Shown here: in pieces, positions 1,292 to 19,119 of the stretch
Layout of the letters: the number at the start of each line of letters is the position of its first letter
How positions within the stretch are numbered: position 1 is the first letter of the stretch
Sequence record: NC_050154.1
Origin: Escherichia phage D6
Length of the DNA stretch: 64,000 bases
Direction: 5' to 3' (one strand)
Notes under the pieces: model-generated
Seen by the model: the letters and a program-made list of their open reading frames with translations, nothing else
What the model was told of the DNA's origin: nothing
Database searches by the model: none
Made by a program: the position numbers and the translations under genes

Positions 1292-2800
1292 TTATATATC
1301 CAGATCCGGCATTTCGATATCCGCCAGAACCTGATCTCGGAAAGTTGCCATTTCGGCACCAATATCTTCATTAGCAGGCACATAGTCCACCAGCATAGTG
1401 AAGCAGTAGGTATCCCATCGGTCAGGCGATTTGATGTTTAGCTTTTGCCGCATGTGCTCTTTGCGCATCATCGCCATTTTCCCTTCTTCATTCAGTAAAA
1501 AGGGGATTTTTGACGCTTGCTCTGCCGTTTTAGGGTCACTGTCTATCCGCATACGCCCTGACTTTATGGCATCACGCGCCATAATATTTGCGTAGGCACG
1601 CTGATTAACAAATCGCTCCCTGTCTTTGTTCGCAAACATGGGTTTTCCCCACCGAATACGTACCGGGTTCGCACCACGACGCACCAACTGCGCACACGTA
1701 TCAGAACCAAAACCATCAGCATCAACCGCGATTGTTATATTCGGGTATTTTTCCGGCGTACATTCGTTATATATGAAGTCAGCAAAGGCCAATGGGTCCA
1801 TAGTGCCAGACATCTCCATTACCTTAAAGTTAACAACGCGCCGCTTATCCCTGTGACCTGATACCTTGCAGATGTTGAGGACCGACTTATCTCGCCCATT
1901 ACCAACGTCAGCCGTTGCCACCCATCCCCAGTTTTTCTCCAACAACACCTTGCGGCGAGCAGCGCGATCGCATTCATCACGACCAAGCAAATAGCCGTTA
2001 ATTTCTCGTGGGAACTGACCAAGCACCTTGACCATGTACTCAATAGAATCGCGCCCGCCATATTCCAGAAGCTTCTGCTTGATGAATTGTGGTGTGACGA
2101 ACGGTGATTCTTCCGAGTTAAGAACAATTGCTGTCCAGATCCCTTTCGGGTTGTCTGGGGTTTTTGCTTGAGAATGGTGCGAATCGTAGAAATAACCACT
2201 TGGCCTTGTTGGCTGGGATAGCATCAACATCCGGTTATCTTCTTCAGTAAGAGCACCGGTCATTACGCCGATCGCCTTATCAGATATACCAGATGCTTCA
2301 TCCAGAATTAGAAGCAAATGTGCCGCGTGTTCCCCCGCCAGCGCTTCTTCGTTGCCGAGTCGATAACCTTTGCAGAGAACTTCCCAAATCCCCTTACGGG
2401 AGCGCTCATAAAACATGGTGTCAGAGAGGACAAAATAGGTCTGCAACCACCCATGACGCTTAACTGCATTCGCCCAATACTGTTTAACGTATTTGAATAC
2501 GCCTGTTTTTACCTGGCCTATCTTGTTAGCAACAATGATGACACGGGCATCGGGGAACAGGATCATGAAAATCAACAGCAACATCGCGGTAAGGGACGAC
2601 TTCCCCGTTCCGTGTCCGGACGTGACGGTCGTCCTACTCCCCGTTTCCTGCACGGACTGAATGATCTGCTGCTGCTGGTGGGAGGGGAACATCCCAAAAA
2701 TATCGACAACAGCTTGGGTAAAGTTGTAGCGGTATTTGATTACCATATCGCGCCAGCGTGGATCGCTGGTGACGCATTTAATCTTGCGCCCTCCAGCCAT
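1292..2800 (-). CDS. pacB: Terminase large subunit (PacB-like)
   Basis: 502 aa; Walker A GHGTGKS; start ATG overlaps the upstream gene stop (TAATG); P1 PacB-like size. Confidence 0.85.
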   Translation of the reverse strand: MAGGRKIKCVTSDPRWRDMVIKYRYNFTQAVVDIFGMFPSHQQQQIIQSVQETGSRTTVTSGHGTGKSSLTAMLLLIFMILFPDARVIIVANKIGQVKTGVFKYVKQYWANAVKRHGWLQTYFVLSDTMFYERSRKGIWEVLCKGYRLGNEEALAGEHAAHLLLILDEASGISDKAIGVMTGALTEEDNRMLMLSQPTRPSGYFYDSHHSQAKTPDNPKGIWTAIVLNSEESPFVTPQFIKQKLLEYGGRDSIEYMVKVLGQFPREINGYLLGRDECDRAARRKVLLEKNWGWVATADVGNGRDKSVLNICKVSGHRDKRRVVNFKVMEMSGTMDPLAFADFIYNECTPEKYPNITIAVDADGFGSDTCAQLVRRGANPVRIRWGKPMFANKDRERFVNQRAYANIMARDAIKSGRMRIDSDPKTAEQASKIPFLLNEEGKMAMMRKEHMRQKLNIKSPDRWDTYCFTMLVDYVPANEDIGAEMATFRDQVLADIEMPDLDI

Positions 2801-4164
2801 TAATCATCCTCCGGCGGTTCTATCGCGATATCATCATCTCCGGCGTCATACCCTGCATCAGATGCATCATAATCACCGTAAATATCAGCCGTTGCCGAAG
2901 GGTCAATATCCAGCTCTTCGTCGTTGGCCTCGAATTCTCCAGCTTTACGCTCGCCATTGCGGTCGTAATCTCCGCACCCCAATTCTTCAACAATGGTTGC
3001 CACATCCGCCCGGCGCTCTGCCAGCCATTGCGGATGGTTAGCCTGAAGCGTCGCAAACTCCCTCGCCTCTTTGTCCAGCTGTTCATCATCAACATCATTG
3101 ACGTCAGAAACAGGTGGTTCGAGAAGAGTGATAGCTTTCGCCGCGCGCGCCGCGAGGATAGCCGGGACGCTGACCCCCTGGCGCTCGATGTATTCAGCAA
3201 CACCGATATCATCCAGTTCCTCGCGCTCACGCATACGTATAGCGGCGGCGATAACTCTGGCAGCGCGTGCGTCAGCGCCAATGCGATATTCAATCTCTTT
3301 GCCACGCTGTTCGGCCTGTAGGCGTGCTAATTCGAGTTTTTCTCTGGCCTCAGCCTCTTTGAATGCTTGCTGGCGAGCGCTCTGACGAAGCTTTTCATCC
3401 CCCTGTCGCAGCTTTTGTTCGGACTGATATATAGCTGCCAACCTACTGATAAAATCATTCATGTAGTAGGCCGCGTCACTGATTAGACCGAGAAGGCGCT
3501 GCCCAGGGTGCATTCCTTCTGGCTCTTTATCGCCCAAGGCGTCTATTTCCGCCTGTAGACGTTCGGCCTCCTGATCAACAATGCTTTGATACTGAAGTGC
3601 GCGCTCTTGCGCCATTTGAATTGCTAACCGCAGGTGTTCTTCTGCGCCGTTCTTCATCATATCGCGAGCCACATTCGTAGTGGGCAATGTGGCACGCTGC
3701 ACAGCACCGCCAGGGATCATTGCTGAAGATCCCTCAATTTTTGGGGCGCTTTTATCTTCTTCGGGGATCATTTTCGCCATTTTTTCGCGCAATGATCTCC
3801 TGACAGATTCTTTTATCTCATTGTTATTATTGGTATTACTTTCATGATCCGAAGTTTTCTTTCTTGGCATACTTCGGAAAGAACCTGCACCCTGCGAATT
3901 GTCAATTTCTGTAAATTTTGTTTTTTCTGCACCCTCTTCCAGCTTTTTTGTTGCTCTTCCCGCCCGTTTTTTTTCAGGTGATTTGGTGCTTTTTTTTGTT
4001 GTCTTTACCTGCGACCGCACCTCATTTTTTTTCATATTGAGATGCTTTCTGGCTGTATTGAAGCTAAGGCCATGCTCCTCACAGTATTCCTTTACAGTGA
4101 TCCCTTTTTCTTCACGCAACGCTATAAAGCGGGCGCGGTGCTCCTCCCAATTAACCAGACTCAT
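2800..4164 (-). CDS. pacA: Terminase small / pac-recognition subunit (PacA-like)
   Basis: 454 aa; N-terminal HTH-like segment (KEYCEEHGLSFNTARKHL); acidic C-terminus; translationally coupled to pacB. Confidence 0.55.
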   Translation of the reverse strand: MSLVNWEEHRARFIALREEKGITVKEYCEEHGLSFNTARKHLNMKKNEVRSQVKTTKKSTKSPEKKRAGRATKKLEEGAEKTKFTEIDNSQGAGSFRSMPRKKTSDHESNTNNNNEIKESVRRSLREKMAKMIPEEDKSAPKIEGSSAMIPGGAVQRATLPTTNVARDMMKNGAEEHLRLAIQMAQERALQYQSIVDQEAERLQAEIDALGDKEPEGMHPGQRLLGLISDAAYYMNDFISRLAAIYQSEQKLRQGDEKLRQSARQQAFKEAEAREKLELARLQAEQRGKEIEYRIGADARAARVIAAAIRMREREELDDIGVAEYIERQGVSVPAILAARAAKAITLLEPPVSDVNDVDDEQLDKEAREFATLQANHPQWLAERRADVATIVEELGCGDYDRNGERKAGEFEANDEELDIDPSATADIYGDYDASDAGYDAGDDDIAIEPPEDD

Positions 4165-4553
4165 AAAGCAACACCACGCTTTTTAACGGCGGCATTCCAC
4201 AGCTTATTCGCCATGTCCACCAGCTCTCGTTGCTCTTTTCGCGCCTGTTCGACTGATTTCCTGCTACAGTTTTTAACCAGTAAGCTACCGTATTCAGGCG
4301 TGCGCCCGCGCACCTTGAACTGATATCCGTTCAGACCATGTAGCCAGTATTTTCGTGGATACACACGATCATCCAGCTCACAGATTGCCCTGCTTGAACG
4401 AACAAAATGACGAATGATGTTAGTTACACTTACTCGTGAAACATGGAGATGAGGGTATTTTTCTTTGGCGAGAGTGGTAATTTCAGTGACTGTCAGATAG
4501 CAGTCAGCCCTGATCATGATATCCGCAATTTCTGCGCTGCTGATTTGTTCCAT
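4161..4553 (-). CDS. Hypothetical protein in the late-promoter-activator position (Lpa-like?)
   Basis: 130 aa; overlaps pacA start (ATGA); operator-like motif 77 bp upstream, as for C1-controlled lpa in P1. Confidence 0.3.
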   Translation of the reverse strand: MEQISSAEIADIMIRADCYLTVTEITTLAKEKYPHLHVSRVSVTNIIRHFVRSSRAICELDDRVYPRKYWLHGLNGYQFKVRGRTPEYGSLLVKNCSRKSVEQARKEQRELVDMANKLWNAAVKKRGVAL

Positions 4554-4629
4554 TAATCCCCCGGGCAGGAAATGACCGAGGGGATGATAATGAGAATGTT
4601 AAAACTGTATAGACTGGTAAAAAGATGAT

Positions 4630-4643
4630 TGTATTAGAAAATT
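4630..4643 (-). promoter_or_regulatory. Operator-like motif (plus strand tgtattagaaaatt) upstream of the 4161..4553 gene
   Basis: Read in the gene's direction it is aattttctaataca; ~30-bp block closely resembles the reverse complement of the site at 54208. Confidence 0.45.
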
Positions 4644-4661
4644 AATATTAAATACCTAATG

Positions 4662-5054
4662 CTACCAGCGAGACAAACGAACAACATGTTTCACTTTTGC
4701 GATCCACTTTCCGCGATAACTATTGATTACGGCCTGTGCCAGCTTCAAATTGGCTTCAAAATCAGCCTTACTACCATCAGACTCCACCAGCATTCCTCCA
4801 TCTATTTCTGGTAAACATAGATAATCCTGCTCAACCTGCAGCGGCATTGATGGCTCTCTGAATGGCGTTACTTGCTCTGCTTTCCAGCGAAATCTAACCC
4901 TCATCCCCCTGGTGGTCATTACTAGATAGCCTGTTATAGTGCTTTTATGGCCCACATCAGTACGCGTGGCATTGCATGACACGATCTTACAGTTAGCGAT
5001 AGACCACTCCATATTGGTGGCCTGTTGAGTGCTTAATTTGGTAGTCCCGTACAT
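4662..5054 (-). CDS. Hypothetical protein
   Basis: 130-aa ORF; overlaps the upstream gene by start/stop coupling. Confidence 0.35.
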   Translation of the reverse strand: MYGTTKLSTQQATNMEWSIANCKIVSCNATRTDVGHKSTITGYLVMTTRGMRVRFRWKAEQVTPFREPSMPLQVEQDYLCLPEIDGGMLVESDGSKADFEANLKLAQAVINSYRGKWIAKVKHVVRLSRW

Positions 5055-5629
5055 CAGAAAGCCTCCCAGTCAGTCGCGATAATATCCACACCAGTTGCAA
5101 ACCAGTCTGTCTGCGCCTGTAAATCACCATTCATCATTACCAGGCGAGGCATCACCATCACATCGCACCCTTCCACAATATCGAATGCCTCTTCCGGCAA
5201 GAATTCGAAGAGCTTTTCTTTGCTGCCAATGCTGCCACGGAACATCGATATATAGCTCCCTTTAGGCCATGATGTCCGCCGGGCATCAAGCCCTTTCATC
5301 ATCCAGTAAAAAGCCGAGGAAAAAGGGATATTCTTTTTGCCAATGATTACATTATTCGCTTCTGTGTACTTCAGGAACTTAACTAACCTTACCATTGACT
5401 CGGATAACGCAACGTATGGCTCATGATTGATTGCTGACACGCTTACACCGTGCAATCCAACGCTTACCACTGTCATATCGCCGCTCTGTGCGGTTTCGAT
5501 ATTGACGCCTTTGCGAACTAATGAGGCGTAAAGTTCCTCTCGCTTTTGGGTCCAGCGTTCACGCTTCCCTATGAAGTCACTCAAAATGAGATCTTCTTCT
5601 GCATATGCGTTATCGTTCGCCATTAACAT
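5054..5629 (-). CDS. Hypothetical protein
   Basis: 191-aa ORF with ATG start; no recognisable motif. Confidence 0.35.
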   Translation of the reverse strand: MLMANDNAYAEEDLILSDFIGKRERWTQKREELYASLVRKGVNIETAQSGDMTVVSVGLHGVSVSAINHEPYVALSESMVRLVKFLKYTEANNVIIGKKNIPFSSAFYWMMKGLDARRTSWPKGSYISMFRGSIGSKEKLFEFLPEEAFDIVEGCDVMVMPRLVMMNGDLQAQTDWFATGVDIIATDWEAF

Positions 5630-6083
5630 AACGTCTCCTTTTTTACACGCGCGACTATCCCCCGGAAGTGCCGGTAGTGATGTCGTAACTTCGTATTAAT
5701 TAAGGGGTACAGCCTGAGCGGCTATATGATGAATTGAAAGGAGTTGTGGCGGTGGTGCCTCCACCTGCCAGGTTAGCCACTCCTGGCGACGTCACTTATC
5801 AGAACGTAGTGAATGAAAATGGCTTCGTCACGAGCGCATAGCCGCAATTACCACAACGGAAACGGCGCTCACGCTAATTAAACGCCTTTTCCTGTTGTGC
5901 GCCGTGCTCTTCCGGCTGTCACACCGAATCGCCAGGATGGTGAATCCTCGGTCCGACGATATGAACGGGGCTTGCACATTCCGGCTACCTGGTTTGTTGC
6001 CTGAGCTAGGGGAAAAGGTAACCCCTTTAACGTCACCAGACCGCTAACGACGCATGTGCCAGACGCCGTGTTACAACCAAATA

Positions 6084-6159
6084 TGGTGGCCCCTACCTGA
6101 CTTGAACCGGTGACCGTGCGATTATGAGTCGCCAGCTCTAACCACTGAGCTAAGGGGCC
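6084..6159 (-). tRNA. tRNA with anticodon CAT (Met or lysidine-Ile2)
   Basis: Hand-folded cloverleaf: acceptor GGCCCCT/AGGGGCC, D-arm GCTC..GAGC, anticodon loop CTCATAA, T-loop TTCAAGT, encoded CCA; one mismatch each in anticodon and T stems. Confidence 0.55.
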
Positions 6160-6168
6160 AATTAGTTT

Positions 6169-6279
6169 TTATTTTCGACGCCTGAGATTCTTCGCTACTT
6201 GTTCTACTCCGTATACGATCACAAGCAGAAATAGCAAAGACCATCCAGGGTTCTTATCAATATACGTCCAAAAATCCAT
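6169..6279 (-). CDS. Small hydrophobic protein (36 aa; tciC-like position)
   Basis: Hand-translated micro-ORF below the ORF-track cutoff; ATG overlaps upstream stop (TGATG); one predicted TM helix. Confidence 0.3.
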   Translation of the reverse strand: MDFWTYIDKNPGWSLLFLLVIVYGVEQVAKNLRRRK

Positions 6280-6443
6280 CATGAGTTCCTGAACGCAGCT
6301 TTAATAATCGGCAATAGCAATACCACAGCTACTGAAACCAGTGCCCCATCAGCCAACACCGACATCACTTTGCTGGTGAAATCCACCAGCACGGACAAAA
6401 CGAGAAAACCAATGGCGCACGCAATACGCGCCTTGCCAATCAT
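6279..6443 (-). CDS. Small membrane protein (54 aa; tciB-like position)
   Basis: Hand-translated micro-ORF; ATG overlaps the TerB-like gene stop (TAATG); two hydrophobic segments. Confidence 0.3.
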   Translation of the reverse strand: MIGKARIACAIGFLVLSVLVDFTSKVMSVLADGALVSVAVVLLLPIIKAAFRNS

Positions 6444-6877
6444 TACAGATAATCTTCCACACGAAGGCCCAAACGACGGCCTACTTCTTCCAGTACTTTG
6501 TGTTCTGCTGGCTCGATTTCACCGTCCGCTTCTGCAATCGTCAGCATGTTAACGAATACTTCTTCCGCTTCTTTTGGATCATTTTTGATATCTTCAATTT
6601 CGCGAAGGATATTCATGCGACCAACACGGAAACCAGCTTCCAGTTGCTCAGTAAAACGGGTGATTGTTGCGGTAATTTCGTTGCCAAAATGACTTAAGCG
6701 AGGATTAGAGCGGACAAGCTGATCAAGTTTCGCTGTTTCTTCCTTTTCGATTTCACCATCTGCGGCAGACACCAACAAACAGCCACCGATAATGGCCTCC
6801 ATCAGATCGCGATTCTCAACCCTTTTCAGCTCTACTTTTGCTGAAGCGACTTTCTTACCGAAAAATTTACCGAACAT
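6443..6877 (-). CDS. TerB-family protein (TciA-like)
   Basis: 144 aa; duplicated acidic EADGEIE motifs typical of TerB; P1 carries TerB-like tciA next to its tRNA genes. Confidence 0.55.
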   Translation of the reverse strand: MFGKFFGKKVASAKVELKRVENRDLMEAIIGGCLLVSAADGEIEKEETAKLDQLVRSNPRLSHFGNEITATITRFTEQLEAGFRVGRMNILREIEDIKNDPKEAEEVFVNMLTIAEADGEIEPAEHKVLEEVGRRLGLRVEDYL

Positions 6878-7144
6878 TGGTTATCCCTCAATAAACATGA
6901 CGTATTTATTAGGTTGCGGTGCCTGGTGCCTCCAGGTGACGTTAACCAGTTAACAATTAACGCCGGGATTTTTGACTTAACCACTAAGGAGGATTGTTTT
7001 AACTGTTCCGCGTGCGCTTAGCCGCATTCACCGCAATGGTAAGAGCACTTGGCTGGCTGGGCGGCGATGACGCCTGTACGCATTTGGTGATCCGGTTCTG
7101 CTTCCGGCATTCGCTTAATTAGCCAAATACTCTTAACGTTGCGC

Positions 7145-7231
7145 TGGCGGAGAGTAATGGAATCGAACCATCATCGCTTGCGCAATGGGACGGTTTTCAA
7201 GACCGCTTGAGCACCATGCGCCCTACTCTCC
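7145..7231 (-). tRNA. Atypical type-II tRNA-like gene (anticodon TGA, Ser?) or pseudo-tRNA
   Basis: Perfect 7-bp acceptor GGAGAGT/ACTCTCC with encoded CCA; anticodon arm GCGGT-CTTGAAA-ACCGT; variable arm with GCAA tetraloop; T-arm GATGG-TTCGATT-CCATT; D-arm not canonical. Confidence 0.4.
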
Positions 7232-7378
7232 GGCCGTTGTGGTGGCCGGTACTGAATCTCCGGCATACGGTGCAGCCAATTAGGACTACGGACGATCACC
7301 GCTCGCGAAAGGGAAGATTTGCGGCCGCATTTCCCTAACATCCAAGAAAGCTATCGCATCAGCCTGCGAATCCACCAC

Positions 7379-7696: not shown

Positions 7697-7772
7697 TGGT
7701 GCCGATTAACGGACTCGAACCGCTGACATCCTGCTTACAAGGCAGGCGCTCTACCAACTGAGCTAAACCGGC
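7697..7772 (-). tRNA. tRNA-Thr (anticodon TGT)
   Basis: Clean cloverleaf folded by hand: acceptor GCCGGTT/AATCGGC, anticodon stem CCTGC/GCAGG, loop CTTGTAA, T-loop TTCGAGT, encoded CCA. Confidence 0.9.
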
Positions 7773-7774
7773 AT

Positions 7775-7850
7775 TGGCGATGGTGGATGGATTTGAACCA
7801 TCGACCCGTTGATTAACAGTCAACCGCTCTAACCGCTGAGCTACACCATC
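7775..7850 (-). tRNA. tRNA-Asn (anticodon GTT)
   Basis: Clean cloverleaf: acceptor GATGGTG/CACCATC, anticodon stem GTTGA/TCAAC, loop CTGTTAA, T-loop TTCAAAT, encoded CCA. Confidence 0.9.
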
Positions 7851-8353
7851 ACTTGCCGGGTACGTCTCCGGCGAGGGCTTCCACCTCCGTATGCTTTTCG
7901 GCGCACCGCGCCCTGGCTGCAATTCGGTAACAGGGGATGCACAACCCTGGCTTCCAGCGTGATTAGCGCCTTCAGCATGACGGGATATACCCGTTACAAG
8001 AAATTCCCCCAGGATGCCATTAAGCAATGGCTGTTACGCGGGAGGGACGTAACAGGTAAGGGCGCTGACCAGAAAGACCTGACCCTTCTCATTCATCTGG
8101 TTAATCACACCAGCGCCCTTGCCTGTTATGCCTCCCCGTTCCCTAATACACAGACGGGGACACTCTGCGGTCGATTTTTTGACGGGGGACGACTCATACC
8201 CCGTGGCGTCTGGCTTCTTAGGCCGCTACCATCATCAGATCATCGTTTGCATTTACTTTAATGGTCGGTTTCTAAACCGCCGCAAAGTCGCTAACCATGA
8301 CGAAAACCCTAAAAAAGCCCACCCGAAGATGGGCAAATACGCTACATCTCACA

Positions 8354-12282: not shown

Positions 12283-15200
12283 TTAGGCCGCATCGGCGAT
12301 TATTTTACGCAGTTCATCTACCGAGTAACGCGTAGATACCATCCATGCAGGACGGTCAAAGTTCACATCAGCAACCGGGTTTGCTTCAAAATTCCAGAAA
12401 CGCCCGCCAATCTTCTTAATCGCGTCTTTGGCGTTCCGTATTGTCGAGGAACCTGGTTGGTCGGCAATGAGATAAACCGCGCCAACGTCCTCGCTGACGC
12501 TCCACCAGCGCCCGCGAACACGCGCCTTAGCGCGAATCGGCTTATCATTAACCACAATGATATAGTCATCATTCGCCGCTTCATCAGCTCTGGCTTCAGC
12601 CACTGCCGCCTGCTCTTCTCTTTTGCTTTCAGCCTGCTCAAGCCTTTCCGCGATCTCTGATTCAGTGGCCCCGCCGTTTTTCAGCGATACATAGTCCTGC
12701 CACGTTGACGATTTGAGCGTATCCGGCAACTCATTCACATAGTCGCCGTCTTTCAACTCACGGGCGCGGCGGGTAGCCATTTCGACCAGGCGATTAACAG
12801 AAACAGCATCAGCAAAATCGTCCTTACTAATGTGTTTTTCATCAAATGCATTGATGACAGCCCCCACCTTAATCCACTGTGCTGCCGGTGATTCCAGGGG
12901 GTTATCAGCCTGAACAATGGCGAGTTTCGCTCCATCTACCCCATTATTCGCCAGCTGTTCCAATGCCGTCCATCCATCTGCATCACTGAGTGATTTATAT
13001 TGCTCAAACAATGCATCGCGCCAGGCCACCAGCGCAGAACGTGTTTTTTCGATCTTCGCCTTAATTTTCGCGATCTTGACCTGATTAAACATCCGTTCAA
13101 TATCATCGATATTGCTAAAGGCTTTCATCCTGCCCTGGAATAAACGGTATGCCAGCACGGTCCTCCAGAATGATTCCAGACCTTCTCCGGACGGTTTGCG
13201 GAACAAGCTAAGAATATCTTCAGAAGTGACTTTATTAAGCGAACGACCTGACAGACCACGCCCAGCCATCCAGTTTTCGAACTCCTGGGTAACATCATCC
13301 ATCGTTGCCTGTGCGCCCCATGCCTGCATTCCCTGGGTGTAATCATACCCATACAATGCCTGGAGGAATCCCTCGCCGTCCACGATATTCAGCGGGTTAT
13401 CACTGGCTTGTATTTTTGCCACTTCACGCTTCAGCGCCTCGTCGTTGCCATCAGGATATATCCATCGCTCAGGTGCTATATCCGATGCTCGCCCGATTTT
13501 TTGGCCTATCACGCCATCATAGGCCGATGACAGCGCGATCTGACCATCATCTGTGCGATATGCCCAGTATTTAATAGCTGACCCACCGCCCCATGCATTA
13601 CCAGGTTTACCAGCAATAACATTCATTACCCCATTGCGAATAGCATCATAGAACTGATCGCGAGTAAGTATTGTTGATAGCTGGTGGCACTGAACACCAC
13701 GCGCAGCCGTTGCGCGCGATTCAGCTACCCCCTCTTCAAAAGTTACCGCTTCAATCACAGAGTCAAACGGCAATGTAACGATTGCCCCCGGTGCTCGAGC
13801 GTAACGACTTGCTCTATCCAGCCAGGCGATACGGCAGAGGTATTGTGCTTTTTCACCGTCAATTTTTTCCACCCGGACAATCGCTGTTGTTTCGCGATCA
13901 TCAATGACTGCACGGTAATAACTACCTTTATGCAACAGGATATTCTTGTCAGTGCGCATATATTCCTGTGGGTTCTGAATAACATCGATACTGATATCCA
14001 GCACACCAGACTTAATAGCGCGCTCCACATCACCACGAGAGCGTTTCATTATGGTATCCGCGTCTTTTGCCCTGGTGATCGCAAACCGCAGCACCCGCGC
14101 ACGTTTTCTGTAGCTACTCAACTGCTCAAGCGCGTATTTTTGCCCATTCCTGTTCGTACCCGCTTTTATCAGGTCGTCAAGATTTCGCTGGTAATACTCT
14201 ATCTGTTCCATCGCGCTTTTCAGTTCTGTCTCCATCATGCCGATATCTTTTCCGGCGGCGTTTGCCGCTTTCAGGTAGATATCGAGAGCATTGTTGGCCT
14301 CGCGCTGTGCTTTCAGTTTCAGACGTTCTTCACGCTCTTGCGCCTGGCGAGCCATGATTGCGCGGCGTTCTTCCGGGTTTGCCGCCAGCATAATGGCGCG
14401 TTCATCAGCATCATCCGCATCACCATTGGCGATCTCTGACATGTCGGAGGTCATCACCATCTTGATCCAGTCTTTCTTACGTTTAAGCGTATCCAGACGG
14501 AAGTCATCGAATGTGCCTTTGCCACAATAGTAGTGAACATTGACCTTTTCTTGCGGTGAACCTACGCGCGCACCGCGCCCATTTCGTTGGTCGATACTGG
14601 CTGGTGTCCAGGGTAGTGTCAGGTGGTGGATATCGGTTGTCCCGATGTGCAGGTTAATACCTACTTCAGCCTTCTTGTTACAGATTATGATGCGCGTGCG
14701 ACCTTCGTTATAGTCGGCGGCAATACCTTCCATGCCCTCAAGGCCAGCATCATTTTTAGCGGAGAGATAATCCTCATATTGGGCAAGTTTGCTGTAGTAG
14801 GTTTCCCATGCCCCTTCTTTGTATTCACCGTTTTTGTTTGGAGTAGGTTCGGTCGGCTTATTCACCTTCTTCAGTTTGATGCCACCAGCCTGGCTAACTG
14901 TCGTCGCATTGATAATGCCAATCTCCTGCTCCGGCATTTGCAGTGCACTGGCGATAATACGGCGCAGCTTCTGGTGCTGGGCTTTTTCATCAATAAAGAC
15001 GATCTGCTTACCGTTCTTCAGACCTTCACGAAGATTTTCGATCAGCGCGGCATACTTCGGCGGGATGGGGTGCGATACCTGCTGCATATCAATGCCGGCA
15101 GCCGCAATGGCCTTCAGTATTTCAGCTTCCAGTTCAATGCTGGCACGTATTTCAACATGCGTCGGATGTTCACTAAAAGCGGTCTTCACTACCTTGCTGG

Positions 15201-18200
15201 TACGCGTACTGACCAGCCCGCCAGCGCCGTCTTCCTCGGCCTCATCAACATCATCTGCCACTTTACCGCCAGCTACTTTTGGCAAGGCATCAGCAATAGC
15301 TTTTACCTGGTCTGCAAGCTCAACGGGGAACTGGAATGTAATCGCACTGGCATACAGATCCGGGTCTATAGCAACCTTATCCATGTCACGGATGATGGAG
15401 AAGATGAAATCATCCGGTTTGTCGTTAGTGATATGCCCGTTTTCATCGACTGTCAGCTCATCATTGCGACTTAACTCCTGAGCACGCTTACGAAGCTCTT
15501 CATAAGCAGTCTCCTGCTCCCCTGTCATCGGGATCTGCAAGGTGTTCTCGATGATGTCGGGAATTTTAACCGTCGCTCCGACATCTGCAGCAGTCTTCAG
15601 AGTGGCCCAACGATGGAAAATACCACGCAGGCCGTCAAGGTTCTGGAAGCCCACCAGCCCCTGCTTCTCTTCCACTTCCCCGGAAATTTTCTGGACCTGA
15701 ACTGTGGCTGTTTTGCCAAACACACGAACGAAATCATCAGGCGTAATGATGCCCATACGCATCCACTCTTCCTGCGGAATGACAGTAGACAGCATGTTGA
15801 AGGCATCAATCGGACTGTTCACCAGCGGTGTTGCCGTCAGCATGACTACACCACGCCCGTTGTTGCGTTTCATCATGTACGCAGCTTTTACAGCCATGTC
15901 GCGGGCCATCTTGGATACTGCCGGGTTAGGCAAATATGCCAGTTGTCCCGCTTCACGCCCGGCATTAAAGGAGTTGCGGTAGTTATGCCCCTCGTCGGCA
16001 ATCACGCTATCGAAGTTCATATCCTCAAAGTACGGGATATTTTGCTTCTTCGTTGTACCGGTATTCGCGGCCTGATCCTTAATCTTGTTCTTCTTCTGCG
16101 CATCACGGTGTTTACCGGACGCCAGGTCAAGACGCCCCATTTCCACAGCATTAAAGACAGCTTGCTGTGAGTTCTCCTCGATGGTTTTTTCTCGTAGCGG
16201 GATAGACGCGAATTGTTCTTTTGTCATGATGACCGTTCGCCAATTTGACGACGGGATCATGTTCATACGCTGAACGATAACGGCGCTGGAGGACTCTTTC
16301 ACAACATTTCTGGTAAGAGGCTGCCCGTTACTGTCGAGGCGTGGTTCGCCATTTTCATCAAGCACCGGCGCGGTCAGAATATTTCCGCTGTCATCACGAA
16401 CTTCATCCAAACCGATAAACATCATATTGGCGAAGGCATCAGCACTGTAGAAACTCTGTGCCTCGTGATACCAGTTCTGATAAACCGCCTTCGGAACAAC
16501 AATACACGTGCGTTTAGTGCGACCTGTTTCGAAGTTATACGCCTCAAGCGCAAGCGCGGTCGTGGTTTTACCCAGCCCGGTACCAAATCCCATGATGCCA
16601 CGCCCATCTTCTGACAAGCGCCGAACTTCTTCATTCTGATAAGTCAGAGGAATGCGCTTTCCACTAATCCCTTCCAGGCCAAGCGGTGCGTCAGAATGTG
16701 TGAACGGAATGAAACCATTGAATGCGTCGTTATAGTCACGGGCTATCTGATCCGCCTGCGGGTGGGTGCGTAACCAGTCGTTAAAGCTAACTTCCAGTTG
16801 AGCAATTTTATCCAGGTACTCGTTAGCGTTCTGCCCACGCGGTTTAACACCGTTCAGGTAGTTTTCTAACTGGTTCAGGAAGCCGTCTTTATTGTTGGCC
16901 TTCTTGAACTCATTCCCGTTTTTGCCGTTTACGGTTCGTAGCTGATAGCCGGTAAATACCCCGTCCTTACCTTCGTAATCGTCCGGAGATACCAGAATGC
17001 CATCGACGACCTTCAGATCAGGTTCAGTGTACTTAAACTCGTCATAGCCCTGCTCTGCCAAGAACTCTTTTATCAAGCGGCGATCCAGCCAGCGGGCATT
17101 CAGATTAACGGTGACTTTATTTAGTGGCGTGAAAATGCGTTTCTCTTCGATTTTCGCCAACTGACGCTCAAAGTTCGCTTTCTGCTCACCTGTTGACGCA
17201 TCACGCCAGCCCACCAGCAGTGCTGTTTTGGTTGCAACATCGCCGCTGGTGGCGCGGTCCATCGGCAGCAGACAGCCATACCCATCAATAGCGATATCAT
17301 CAAATTTCGCCAGGTATTCAAGGACCGCGTCGTCGTCCTCTGGCAGTTCACCAGCAAACGCCTCACGAAAGTCGCCCAGCGTTATAGGATTAAGGGCTAC
17401 ATCACTAAAAAGATGTGCTATCACTTGTTCAGGACGTGTAAAGTCAATACCGGCAGCACCATCCGTTACATCAAGTCGCCCTGCCAGAAGGTCAGAAGTG
17501 GAACCATCCTGTTTCACATTGCCAGTGAACGTCATCCAGTTTTTAGCGCCAGCTTCAGCAAGCCCATTCAGCTTAATGGCGTGCGGTGGTCCATACTTCG
17601 CAACTTCTGCTGCCGCCAGGCGGGATGCATCTGCCAGTTTGTCATCAACGTTCACACCCAGGTTACGCAAATCAAGTGCCTTGTTGATCAACTGACCTAT
17701 CAGCGCACCGCGCATAACGCGCTCCCTGTCTTTTTCTCGCTGCTTGCCAGCAAAGCGAATCATTGCTGCCACTTCATCACTGACAACCGATGGATAGTCG
17801 GACGCGATCGCCGATATCTGGTCCCATGACAAAGCCAGAATCCCGTTTGTTGACTGGAACGCGATCTGCAGATCGCCAAACGTCGAAACACCATATCGAC
17901 TTACATCAAGCGCGGAGGATTTGGTTGTCGTGTCCTTAACCCATTTCAGACCATCAAACTCATGCCAGATACCGCCTACAAGGCGTTTATCGCCCACTTT
18001 CGCGCCCTGCCATGCCTGAGTAGTTACGCCGAGCAAATCCCAATTGATGCGACTATCAAAGCGACGAGATAGCGCGGTTTTCATCGACTCATTGGATACA
18101 CGACCGTCTTTTTTCACCACCAGGGTATTGCGGAAGCTGGTACGTTCCATGTCGCCGTAAACAAATCGCTTCCCTTCGGTTGTAAACCATTTTCCTTTGA

Positions 18201-19119
18201 GGAAGGTATCCCAAAGGACGTTTGCCGATTTGAGTGTTGAATCATCCGTGTCGGGGATCATCTCCAGGAAGGTTTCCGGGTGTTTACGCAATACCCATAC
18301 GTCCACCACGGTATCTGTACCGGATTCGCTGAACGTACCAGAAGGCATACGATGTGCGCCCAAAAATTCCGCTTTACGGCTGACTTTATCGCGCAATTTT
18401 TTATATTTCGCACCATCGGTCATGCCATTCGGCACCACCAATACGATAAGCCCACCAGGCTTAACCTTGTCGATCGTGCGCAGCACAAAGTAATTGCCAA
18501 CGTTCTTCTCGTTTGCATATGCCGGATCAAGACCGGCGACACCGGAACGCCCTTCACCAAACGGTACGTTACCAACAGCGTGATCATACATTGCGTCTTT
18601 CGCCGCCAGCGCCTCAAACGCCCCGATATTCACATCGTCTTCCGGGTGCAAAAGCTGGTTTATTCGACCGGAAATCGGAGACAGTTCGGCGCTGGTCATT
18701 ATCATGCCCTGCCGTTTTGTCTCCTGGAAAATACCTGTGCCCGCTGATGGTTCCAGTACGTGCCCGCCATCAATACCGTAGTCAGCAAACAGATCCCATA
18801 TACCTTCAGCCATAAACTGTGGCGTGTAGTATTCGTATTGGCTGCCCTCACCATCTGTCAGGCCGCCTTCACCGGTATACCCGGCAAGAATCTGACGTTG
18901 TTCGTCAGTTAATTTCGCCCCATCGAAGCCGGGCGGAAGGGAATTAAGAAGATTTACTGCGGCATTATTTGCTGCCCGGCGTGTTTTCTGAATACTGACG
19001 CCATCGGCTTTCCTGACGCCAAAGGTCGCAACAGCACGTAATTTATGCAACCGACTAACAATTTCAATCAGTTCGCCTAAGCTGGAGGCTTCACTGATTG
19101 AATGAAGTAGTTTGTCCAA
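12283..19119 (-). CDS. darB: DarB-like antirestriction protein (N-terminal adenine-methyltransferase domain plus superfamily-2 helicase)
   Basis: 2278 aa; MTase-like NVPFG and SAM-binding region; helicase motifs GFGTGLGKTT and DEGH; TTG start with strong RBS (GAGGGGG); size matches P1 DarB (~2255 aa). Confidence 0.8.
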   Translation of the reverse strand: MDKLLHSISEASSLGELIEIVSRLHKLRAVATFGVRKADGVSIQKTRRAANNAAVNLLNSLPPGFDGAKLTDEQRQILAGYTGEGGLTDGEGSQYEYYTPQFMAEGIWDLFADYGIDGGHVLEPSAGTGIFQETKRQGMIMTSAELSPISGRINQLLHPEDDVNIGAFEALAAKDAMYDHAVGNVPFGEGRSGVAGLDPAYANEKNVGNYFVLRTIDKVKPGGLIVLVVPNGMTDGAKYKKLRDKVSRKAEFLGAHRMPSGTFSESGTDTVVDVWVLRKHPETFLEMIPDTDDSTLKSANVLWDTFLKGKWFTTEGKRFVYGDMERTSFRNTLVVKKDGRVSNESMKTALSRRFDSRINWDLLGVTTQAWQGAKVGDKRLVGGIWHEFDGLKWVKDTTTKSSALDVSRYGVSTFGDLQIAFQSTNGILALSWDQISAIASDYPSVVSDEVAAMIRFAGKQREKDRERVMRGALIGQLINKALDLRNLGVNVDDKLADASRLAAAEVAKYGPPHAIKLNGLAEAGAKNWMTFTGNVKQDGSTSDLLAGRLDVTDGAAGIDFTRPEQVIAHLFSDVALNPITLGDFREAFAGELPEDDDAVLEYLAKFDDIAIDGYGCLLPMDRATSGDVATKTALLVGWRDASTGEQKANFERQLAKIEEKRIFTPLNKVTVNLNARWLDRRLIKEFLAEQGYDEFKYTEPDLKVVDGILVSPDDYEGKDGVFTGYQLRTVNGKNGNEFKKANNKDGFLNQLENYLNGVKPRGQNANEYLDKIAQLEVSFNDWLRTHPQADQIARDYNDAFNGFIPFTHSDAPLGLEGISGKRIPLTYQNEEVRRLSEDGRGIMGFGTGLGKTTTALALEAYNFETGRTKRTCIVVPKAVYQNWYHEAQSFYSADAFANMMFIGLDEVRDDSGNILTAPVLDENGEPRLDSNGQPLTRNVVKESSSAVIVQRMNMIPSSNWRTVIMTKEQFASIPLREKTIEENSQQAVFNAVEMGRLDLASGKHRDAQKKNKIKDQAANTGTTKKQNIPYFEDMNFDSVIADEGHNYRNSFNAGREAGQLAYLPNPAVSKMARDMAVKAAYMMKRNNGRGVVMLTATPLVNSPIDAFNMLSTVIPQEEWMRMGIITPDDFVRVFGKTATVQVQKISGEVEEKQGLVGFQNLDGLRGIFHRWATLKTAADVGATVKIPDIIENTLQIPMTGEQETAYEELRKRAQELSRNDELTVDENGHITNDKPDDFIFSIIRDMDKVAIDPDLYASAITFQFPVELADQVKAIADALPKVAGGKVADDVDEAEEDGAGGLVSTRTSKVVKTAFSEHPTHVEIRASIELEAEILKAIAAAGIDMQQVSHPIPPKYAALIENLREGLKNGKQIVFIDEKAQHQKLRRIIASALQMPEQEIGIINATTVSQAGGIKLKKVNKPTEPTPNKNGEYKEGAWETYYSKLAQYEDYLSAKNDAGLEGMEGIAADYNEGRTRIIICNKKAEVGINLHIGTTDIHHLTLPWTPASIDQRNGRGARVGSPQEKVNVHYYCGKGTFDDFRLDTLKRKKDWIKMVMTSDMSEIANGDADDADERAIMLAANPEERRAIMARQAQEREERLKLKAQREANNALDIYLKAANAAGKDIGMMETELKSAMEQIEYYQRNLDDLIKAGTNRNGQKYALEQLSSYRKRARVLRFAITRAKDADTIMKRSRGDVERAIKSGVLDISIDVIQNPQEYMRTDKNILLHKGSYYRAVIDDRETTAIVRVEKIDGEKAQYLCRIAWLDRASRYARAPGAIVTLPFDSVIEAVTFEEGVAESRATAARGVQCHQLSTILTRDQFYDAIRNGVMNVIAGKPGNAWGGGSAIKYWAYRTDDGQIALSSAYDGVIGQKIGRASDIAPERWIYPDGNDEALKREVAKIQASDNPLNIVDGEGFLQALYGYDYTQGMQAWGAQATMDDVTQEFENWMAGRGLSGRSLNKVTSEDILSLFRKPSGEGLESFWRTVLAYRLFQGRMKAFSNIDDIERMFNQVKIAKIKAKIEKTRSALVAWRDALFEQYKSLSDADGWTALEQLANNGVDGAKLAIVQADNPLESPAAQWIKVGAVINAFDEKHISKDDFADAVSVNRLVEMATRRARELKDGDYVNELPDTLKSSTWQDYVSLKNGGATESEIAERLEQAESKREEQAAVAEARADEAANDDYIIVVNDKPIRAKARVRGRWWSVSEDVGAVYLIADQPGSSTIRNAKDAIKKIGGRFWNFEANPVADVNFDRPAWMVSTRYSVDELRKIIADAA

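Follow-up and report, generated by a model that had tools for sequence, protein, structure and literature searches.

A translationally coupled terB-tciB-tciC cassette in the tRNA cluster of Escherichia phage D6, with a putative role in tethering TerB at the inner membrane

To characterize a group of small genes in Escherichia phage D6, we analyzed a 64,000-nucleotide (nt) stretch of its sequence record NC_050154.1, referred to below as the window. The feature studied, at positions 6169-6877, lies inside a phage transfer RNA (tRNA) cluster. It comprises three overlapping genes on the minus strand, encoding proteins of 144, 54 and 36 amino acids (aa), and has the following layout:

6443..6877, minus strand: terB (P1 tciA, P7 terB), encoding a 144-aa acidic, soluble TerB-domain protein
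6279..6443, minus strand: tciB homologue (DUF3927), encoding a 54-aa membrane peptide with two hydrophobic stretches
6169..6279, minus strand: tciC-like gene, encoding the 36-aa single-pass membrane peptide MDFWTYIDKNPGWSLLFLLVIVYGVEQVAKNLRRRK
6084..6159, minus strand: tRNA with anticodon CAT (P1 trnI, an ileX-like tRNA-Ile2), found by ARAGORN and Rfam
6915..7035, minus strand: partial STnc100-like RNA element in the leader just 5' of terB (Rfam RF02076, sub-threshold)

The terB stop codon TAA (6445..6443) and the tciB ATG have one base in common (TAATG), and the same applies to the tciB stop codon TGA (6281..6279) and the ATG at 6279 (TGATG), which opens the third open reading frame (ORF). 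The gap between the stop codon of this ORF and tRNA(CAT) is 9 nt long (6160..6168); in P1/P7-type alleles, the corresponding spacer has 3 nt (locus L002, 3269..3271). These observations agree with an earlier reading made from the sequence alone (the sequence-only reading), which had placed three coupled ORFs with both overlaps in front of a CAT tRNA. Hydropathy also agrees with its description of the 54-aa ORF as having two hydrophobic segments and of the 36-aa ORF as hydrophobic. An alternative in-frame ATG at 6282 (ATGA overlap) would yield a third ORF of 37 aa, which is the length given by the ORF lister. The position of the 6279 ATG is the start of all library homologues and of the annotated P1 and P7 genes. 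GAGGG is located 7-8 nt before the terB ATG, and AGGA, a Shine-Dalgarno sequence at optimal spacing, 7 nt before the tciC ATG at 6279. No good Shine-Dalgarno sequence was found before the tciB start, and initiation at tciB therefore probably depends on coupling. Thus, the ribosome-binding sequences of the three genes are consistent with a coupled operon. In a test for structure-dependent coupling, RNA structure at both gene junctions gave nonsignificant z-scores (-0.9 to +2.0), which were unlike between the window and P1. The tRNA(CAT) was called tRNA-Met(cat) by ARAGORN and scored 58.5 bits with the Rfam tRNA model; PGAP and the P1 record name it tRNA-Ile.

The cassette is already known. It corresponds to tciA-tciB-tciC-trnI of P1 (AF234172) and to terB-upf69.4-upf69.6-tRNA-Ile of P7 (AF503408), it is covered by the Pfam families TerB and DUF3927, and exact copies are present in many sequenced plasmids. 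In P1 it has been named since the 2004 genome annotation, and its practical importance is small. The GenBank records of both phages annotate all three genes, which have the same position in the tRNA cluster, order, strand and 1-nt overlaps as in the window, similar sizes (144 or 141 aa, 54 aa, and 35-36 aa), and a tRNA(CAT) directly downstream. Unlike the window, P1 and P7 carry a different tciB-tciC allele with a TciC of 35 aa instead of 36 and have ban after the tRNA; the window also lacks a C1 operator. TerB of the window is 99% identical to P7 TerB and just 30% identical to P1 TciA. The sequence-only reading had matched the trio to P1 tciA-tciB-tciC, and this holds for order, overlaps, tRNA and sequence, with P7 being the closer relative.

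By profile, motifs and helical fold, the 144-aa protein belongs to the TerB domain family. It matched Pfam PF05099 (2e-14, 54.4 bits versus a cut-off of 24.4) over profile positions 2-113 of 118, and PHROG 632 (6e-63), a family named for tellurite resistance. The best solved-structure match by sequence was Klebsiella TerB (PDB 2jxu, 2.3e-7). An AlphaFold2 (AF2) model (pLDDT 91.1, pTM 0.84) was all-helical with six helices, and its best fold match was PDB 2h5n (TMq 0.52, TMt 0.59, probability 1.00, with a weak E-value of 0.03). The protein has an isoelectric point of 4.9 and a basic N-terminal helix (residues 1-20, charge +6/-1). It contains two DGxIxxxE motifs, whose residues D40/G41/E47 and D118/G119/E125 are invariant in comparison to P1 TciA and invariant or at least 90% conserved in 30 homologues. 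We take these duplicated motifs to be the proposed metal-binding positions of the family; they are putative in this protein. The NCBIfam model for DjlA matched residues 36-142 (E = 8e-6, 25.6 bits), far under the family cut-off of 162 bits.

TerB of the ter operons (terZABCDEF; tellurite, colicin and phage resistance) has the same Pfam domain and fold class. In contrast to these operons, no checked neighbor of the cassette is a ter gene, and the identity to Klebsiella TerB is low. Searched for near the cassette, terC, terD and terE were not found; the neighbors are tRNAs, a Tad2-like gene, lpa and pacA. Since no terC or terD is nearby, classical tellurite resistance should not be assumed. A paper on D6-like elements describes the ter operon there as "incomplete" (PMC6799933).

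The 54-aa ORF is a member of the DUF3927/TciB family, as seen from its profile matches and from its overlap with the terB stop codon. It matched Pfam PF13064 (1.6e-18, 66.8 bits versus a cut-off of 25) and PHROG 1470, "TciB-like" (3.5e-21), and is 67% identical to P7 Upf69.4 and 61% identical to P1 TciB. Its hydrophobic stretches comprise residues 7-20 and 26-47, with DFTSK between them. In the core VDFTS...SVL.DG, residues D21, F22, T23, S24, S28, V29, D32 and G33 are invariant among seven diverse members, and pN/pS, the ratio of the proportions of nonsynonymous and synonymous differences, was about 0.27-0.4 against other alleles. RefSeq copies of the same element routinely annotate this ORF as "DUF3927 family protein", and with it two of the cassette's three genes. 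The sequence-only statement that both micro-ORFs are unannotated thus fails for the 54-aa ORF and stands for the third ORF, with respect to PGAP records of this allele type and the D6-like paper. Searches with tblastn against a phage collection returned 3 matches for the 54-aa and 0 for the 36-aa peptide, which is uninformative given the low-complexity filter and the short queries.

The 36-aa product has a single hydrophobic core (residues ~12-29) between an acidic N-terminus and the tail KNLRRRK. For this peptide, the positive-inside rule predicts an N-out orientation, with the basic C-terminus on the inside. It is 31% identical over 35 residues to P1 TciC and P7 Upf69.6, with 11 invariant columns, and has in common with them the pattern M-x-F-W-x-[FY]-x-D-K-x-P, followed by the hydrophobic core and a basic end. 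Length, motif, core with basic end, overlap with the upstream stop codon and a stop 3-9 nt before tRNA-Ile2 place it in the TciC family. The PHROG match was not significant (E = 0.17) and a phmmer library search returned no P1-type sequence; homology to P1 TciC is argued from position and architecture. In P1/D6-like elements, the tciC allele types, all in frame, are the window type, the L007 type (MNFWAFADKNPGWTFLFLLVVAYGVEQAAKALRGSGKKRKRN, from an O45:H2 plasmid type, annotated by PGAP as WP_260733251.1), the P1/P7 type and a fourth type (MGFWDFADKYPIVLIIIVAIVVGGIVSAIEALSKQ, with minor variants). The alleles are 34-42 aa long, every start lies on the upstream stop codon, and every end is 3 or 9 nt before the tRNA.

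Could the third frame be open by chance, as part of the spacer that separates tciB from the tRNA? A 36-codon frame stays open by chance with a probability of (61/64)^36, or ~0.18, and is unremarkable as such. In addition, PGAP makes no tciC call in the inspected copies of window-type and P7-type cassettes, the PHROG match is insignificant, and P1-type and L008-type alleles differ with a pN/pS of ~0.9, a value based on only 12 substitutions, with hydrophobic-for-hydrophobic replacements. Against a chance frame, the frame, length class, overlap, N-terminal motif, core and basic tail are kept even though DNA identity is down to 33-69%, with flanks at 95-97%. Between the window and L007 alleles (33 codons), synonymous sites are saturated (pS 0.80) and nonsynonymous sites are not (pN 0.18). 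Gene callers predicted relatives independently: a phmmer search with the third ORF against 1.84 billion representatives found called peptides of 36, 45, 39 and 33 aa (E = 1.5e-15 to 5.6e-4, the two best at 1.5e-15 and 1.7e-7), all starting at the position of the 6279 ATG. The PGAP annotation of the L007 allele and the Shine-Dalgarno sequence also speak against chance, which we regard as hardly credible. An 857-aa low-complexity protein (P0009) was dropped as a spurious match, and an environmental protein (P0010) is a weak relative, with E = 1.2e-4 over the transmembrane (TM) segment, a similarity that is possibly compositional. Constraint and conservation across alleles, rather than the openness of the frame, thus argue that the third frame is a gene under purifying selection, as judged against its nearest allele. 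The sequence-only reading had made its micro-ORFs depend on conservation of the frames in related elements; the 36-aa frame is kept across alleles, and the P1/P7 alignments gave the identities stated above for both peptides.

To survey the TerB-DUF3927 pair, viral contigs of IMG/VR were scanned with a seven-member TciB alignment, and the best 80 loci were analyzed, with ORFs placed by tblastn. An earlier scan with a narrow three-sequence alignment had found 2 loci only. In all 80 best loci, the terB ORF overlaps the DUF3927 start by 1 or 4 nt. The P1/D6-like loci (45 of the 80) additionally have TciC and a downstream CAT tRNA, and in each of these 45 the distance from the tciC stop to the tRNA is fixed at 3 or 9 nt. 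The other 35 loci, mostly lambdoid, have neither TciC nor a downstream CAT tRNA; in the lambdoid loci, CAT and Arg tRNAs are located upstream instead. Among the loci examined, TciC was found only in P1/D6-like elements and always beside the tRNA.

In lambdoid (Stx-type, CP-933-like) E. coli prophages, terB is coupled to DUF3927 near tRNA genes (CAT included) and STnc100, as in the window. In contrast to the window, the lambdoid overlap is 4 nt instead of 1 nt, no TciC-type third gene is present, and the pair is located after Q but ahead of the lysis genes, namely a distinct holin candidate and, behind it, lysozyme and Rz-type genes. At a coverage of at least 80%, the lambdoid pair is present in 678 of 5426 complete E. 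coli genomes, or about one in eight. A short frame beginning MLDFFVCCLLKTLLHGESPCA (L010, 3889..3984, minus strand; L062-L089) follows DUF3927 in lambdoid prophages, where it overlaps the DUF3927 stop by 8 nt and also overlaps STnc100. At 26, 31 or 78 aa, this frame is of variable length, which suggests that it is the RNA that is conserved there, not a peptide.

Klebsiella prophages of the P2/186-like type also carry the pair, in their early operon and flanked by fil and dam/gpA. Their TerB, 88% identical to that of the window, precedes a DUF3927 peptide of 60 aa, the genes having a TGATG overlap; unlike in the window, tRNA and TciC are missing and a hairpin follows DUF3927. An Aeromonadaceae metagenome-assembled genome carries the pair as well. 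In a Pseudomonas prophage, the gene coupled (GTGA) to a TerB of the same subfamily encodes an unrelated single-TM protein of 67 aa, and because of this pairing the constant feature is "TerB plus a small membrane protein". A 171-aa protein from a JGI metagenome (P0037) is an in-frame TerB-DUF3927 fusion (…RLGLRVEDY-SELRVLDSLRPALALLLAFMVVAVDFTSYLL…); as a single case it gives weak support and could be a genuine fusion or a sequencing or stop-loss artefact. From its distribution, the evolutionary core of the cassette is TerB plus DUF3927, a portable two-gene module of P1/D6-like, lambdoid and P2/186-like prophages, and TciC is an add-on specific to the P1/D6 lineage that is fixed beside the tRNA-Ile2 gene.

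Comparison of the window with P7 at the DNA level showed ~95% identity through terB, a drop at the first base of tciB (75%, then 60%) and the lowest values in tciC (33-45%). Over the tciB-tciC segment, DNA identity to P1/P7 is 33-68%, while the tRNA(CAT) is 95-97% identical to its P1/P7 counterpart. In the E. coli O45:H2 plasmid L007, the leader and the tRNA match the window, terB and tciB are absent, and similarity returns exactly at the tciC start. The slot is occupied there by an unrelated 77-aa ORF with two TM segments that is coupled to tciC (2585..2815, minus strand). In Punavirus Ro157c2YLVW, it contains genes for a 78-aa membrane protein and an SPFH/Band 7 protein (L100, 1490..2534, minus strand). 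The slot between the tRNA cluster and tRNA-Ile2 thus behaves, as far as these alignments indicate, as an exchange point with overlapping gene borders as breakpoints. These exchangeable occupants agree with a survey in which tciABC is one of eight hypervariable regions of P1-like phage-plasmids and is lost in about half of one subgroup (PMC9603915).

The leader element matched RF02076 at model positions 31-147 of 206 with 39.6 bits versus a gathering score of 47 (E = 2e-7 for a 311-nt stretch). P7 and P1 have this partial element ahead of terB/tciA, and L007 has it ahead of the replacement gene. STnc100 in full length and above threshold was found beside TerB-DUF3927 in lambdoid prophages (L010, 3800..3972, 100.8 bits; L015, 3094..3280, 80 bits). 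The presence of STnc100 sequences next to the cassette in both phage groups suggests an exchange of cassette and flank between lambdoid and P1-like phages. STnc100/Pas small RNAs were independently linked with TerB genes in Stx-phage regions in a 2026 preprint.

We favor, as moderately probable, the view that this P1-type tciA-tciB-tciC accessory unit encodes small proteins that tether TerB at the inner membrane. Translational coupling would provide roughly matched amounts of the three products. With TciB, together with TciC, as its membrane anchor or partner, the TerB domain would be kept at the cytoplasmic face of the inner membrane. Tethered in this way, the module would alter a host property related to the envelope or to ions, either in phage development or in lysogeny. 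The cassette would be dispensable in lytic growth and would represent exchangeable cargo rather than a lysis or toxin module. This model is based on (i) the strict linkage of TerB and DUF3927 and their coupling, (ii) the replacement of DUF3927 by another small membrane protein in the Pseudomonas prophage, (iii) the single fusion protein P0037, (iv) the reported interaction of TerB with the integral membrane protein TerC in ter operons (PMC11003894), and (v) a weak match to membrane-anchored DjlA in its TerB-like domain. In DjlA, an N-terminal TM anchor precedes a TerB-like and a J domain, so that the TerB-like domain is held at the inner membrane; window TerB differs in having no J domain, and its anchor, if any, is a separate polypeptide. 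The charges were also counted in favor of a tether, TciB and TciC both being basic and hydrophobic and TerB acidic. In P1, tciA, tciB and tciC are transcribed in lytic infection (bioRxiv 10.64898/2025.12.28.696737), and knock-down of these genes by CRISPR interference leaves plaque formation intact, showing that they are non-essential (PMC10695390).

Several points weigh against this model. We infer the tether from gene linkage, coupling, one fusion protein and analogy. The AF2 model draws TciB as one continuous 52-residue helix instead of a hairpin, and either topology may apply. TciC also occurs without TerB or TciB, coupled to the unrelated 77-aa membrane ORF of L007, and the lambdoid and P2-like copies of the pair have no TciC; for these reasons, TciC may not be part of a TerB complex. 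The analogy to the ter operon may not be transferable, because no other ter genes are in the neighborhood. Finally, the window has no P1-type C1 operator, and upstream homology to P1/P7 ends at 8337.

The sequence-only reading noted that small membrane peptides of this kind are also seen for toxins or holin-like factors. In an alternative along these lines, the products of the micro-ORFs would damage membranes, acting as type I-like toxins or as holin/antiholin-like lysis factors, and TerB would regulate them or be an unrelated neighbor. Both peptides are very small, hydrophobic and basic, with the general look of Hok, TisB and pinholin-type peptides, and TciC has a single TM segment with a charged C-terminal tail. 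Coupling of translation to a preceding frame is known from mok/hok as well. Searches of Pfam, PHROGs, NCBIfam and PADLOC, however, assigned the peptides to no toxin, holin or defence family, and no Rfam antitoxin RNA and no convincing antisense promoter facing the micro-ORFs were found at the locus. The cassette adjoins no endolysin gene, and the lambdoid pair is located upstream of a holin candidate of its own. DUF3927 was never found without TerB in the 80 loci, a pattern more in keeping with a partner subunit than with an autonomous toxin, and P1 still forms plaques upon knock-down of each gene. By their sequence features, the micro-ORFs would therefore qualify neither as holins nor as members of a type I toxin-antitoxin system, and we consider such a role highly improbable.

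It is less improbable, but still unlikely, that TciC is independent of TerB and TciB, either as a generic partner of whichever membrane protein precedes it or as a frame whose translation mainly modulates how the adjoining tRNA-Ile2 matures. L007 keeps TciC and its overlap despite the replacement of TerB and TciB, with the breakpoint precisely where TciC starts. No TciC is present at loci that lack a tRNA directly downstream, and the fixed distance of TciC to the tRNA in the 45 loci points in the same direction, as does P0010, which is coupled to another TM protein with no TerB nearby. Since the tciC stop is just 3-9 nt from the tRNA 5' end, a terminating ribosome would cover the tRNA 5' region, and translation and RNase P processing might interfere with each other. 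On the other hand, the constrained amino-acid sequence (the pN and pS values given above) indicates that the peptide matters and not mere translation, TciC follows TciB in 45 of the 45 P1/D6-like loci with TciB, and the P0010 similarity may reflect composition. We retain the membrane tether of TerB as the preferred interpretation.

The region matched phage P7 at ~90-93%, phage P1 in part only, and many 75-95-kb non-mobilisable plasmids of E. coli and Salmonella at 98-99.9%. Window positions 4100-7300 are 99.3% identical to pYU39_89 (CP011430), a published D6-like plasmid prophage (PMC6799933). Based on these matches, the element is assigned to the D6/P1 family of phage-plasmids. The following features flank the cassette upstream (tRNAs of the same cluster, found by ARAGORN) and downstream:

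7775..7850, minus strand: tRNA-Asn(GTT)
7697..7772, minus strand: tRNA-Thr(TGT)
7145..7231, minus strand: tRNA-Ser(TGA), upstream of terB
5054..5629, minus strand: Tad2-like ORF, 191 aa (PF11195, 1.1e-9)
4662..5054, minus strand: hypothetical gene, 130 aa (ORF)
4161..4553, minus strand: lpa (PF25716, 5e-57)
2800..4164, minus strand: 454-aa ORF, named "DNA pacase A subunit" by PGAP

P1 and P7 have the same upstream tRNA layout as the window, and by analogy with P1 we infer that the cassette would be co-transcribed with the upstream tRNAs. The tRNA-Ser(TGA) between terB and the Thr and Asn tRNAs (4239..4325 in L001) is also present in P7, although the P7 GenBank record does not annotate it, and is absent from P1. 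Related elements have further tRNAs, Tyr(GTA) and Arg(TCT), at this site. Downstream of tRNA-Ile2, past a gap of ~450 nt, the order is Tad2-like gene, 130-aa hypothetical gene, lpa and pacA; P1 and P7 have ban/dbn at that place and lack the Tad2-like ORF at this position. The RefSeq name of this ORF is "Thoeris anti-defense Tad2 family protein", and older records call it "MW1434 family type I TA system toxin".

In the P1 record, the cassette is located behind the C1-controlled ban promoter. The P1 C1 operator consensus ATTGCTCTAATAAATTT had no match in the whole 64-kb window with up to 3 mismatches allowed. P1 Pban/Op72 regulation therefore cannot simply be carried over to this element, and its immunity specificity presumably differs from that of P1. 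A scan of the terB leader for consensus promoters found none. A strong terminator-like hairpin (8317..8334, minus strand; GCCCATCTTCGGGTGGGC followed by T6) lies exactly at the end of P1/P7 homology, near the position of the annotated dicF-like region of P1; Rfam gave no DicF match at this hairpin. A very long ORF of 2278 aa is located at 12283..19119 on the minus strand.

What is new here, modest as it is, is that TerB and DUF3927 form an obligate coupled pair over at least three phage lineages, and that the unannotated tciC-type ORF, which has several alleles, shows evidence of being a selected gene. The latter calls for an annotation correction, since the 36-aa tciC-type gene is systematically missed by PGAP for this allele type and in the published D6-like annotation, which names tciA and tciB only (PMC6799933). 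A broader idea, which we put forward tentatively and consider rather doubtful, is that TerB with a co-translated small membrane protein is a portable module of the P1/D6, lambdoid and P2/186 lineages and of a Pseudomonas prophage, located in early or late operons, that re-tunes inner membrane or ion homeostasis of the host, and that TciC links translation of the cassette to maturation of tRNA-Ile2. If true, such a module might, for example, keep out superinfecting phages or colicins or weaken a host defence that acts on the membrane; in the window, the cassette is directly upstream of the Tad2-type anti-Thoeris gene. A membrane-tethered TerB is a concrete, testable hypothesis for a gene pair that is present in about one in eight complete E. 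coli genomes.

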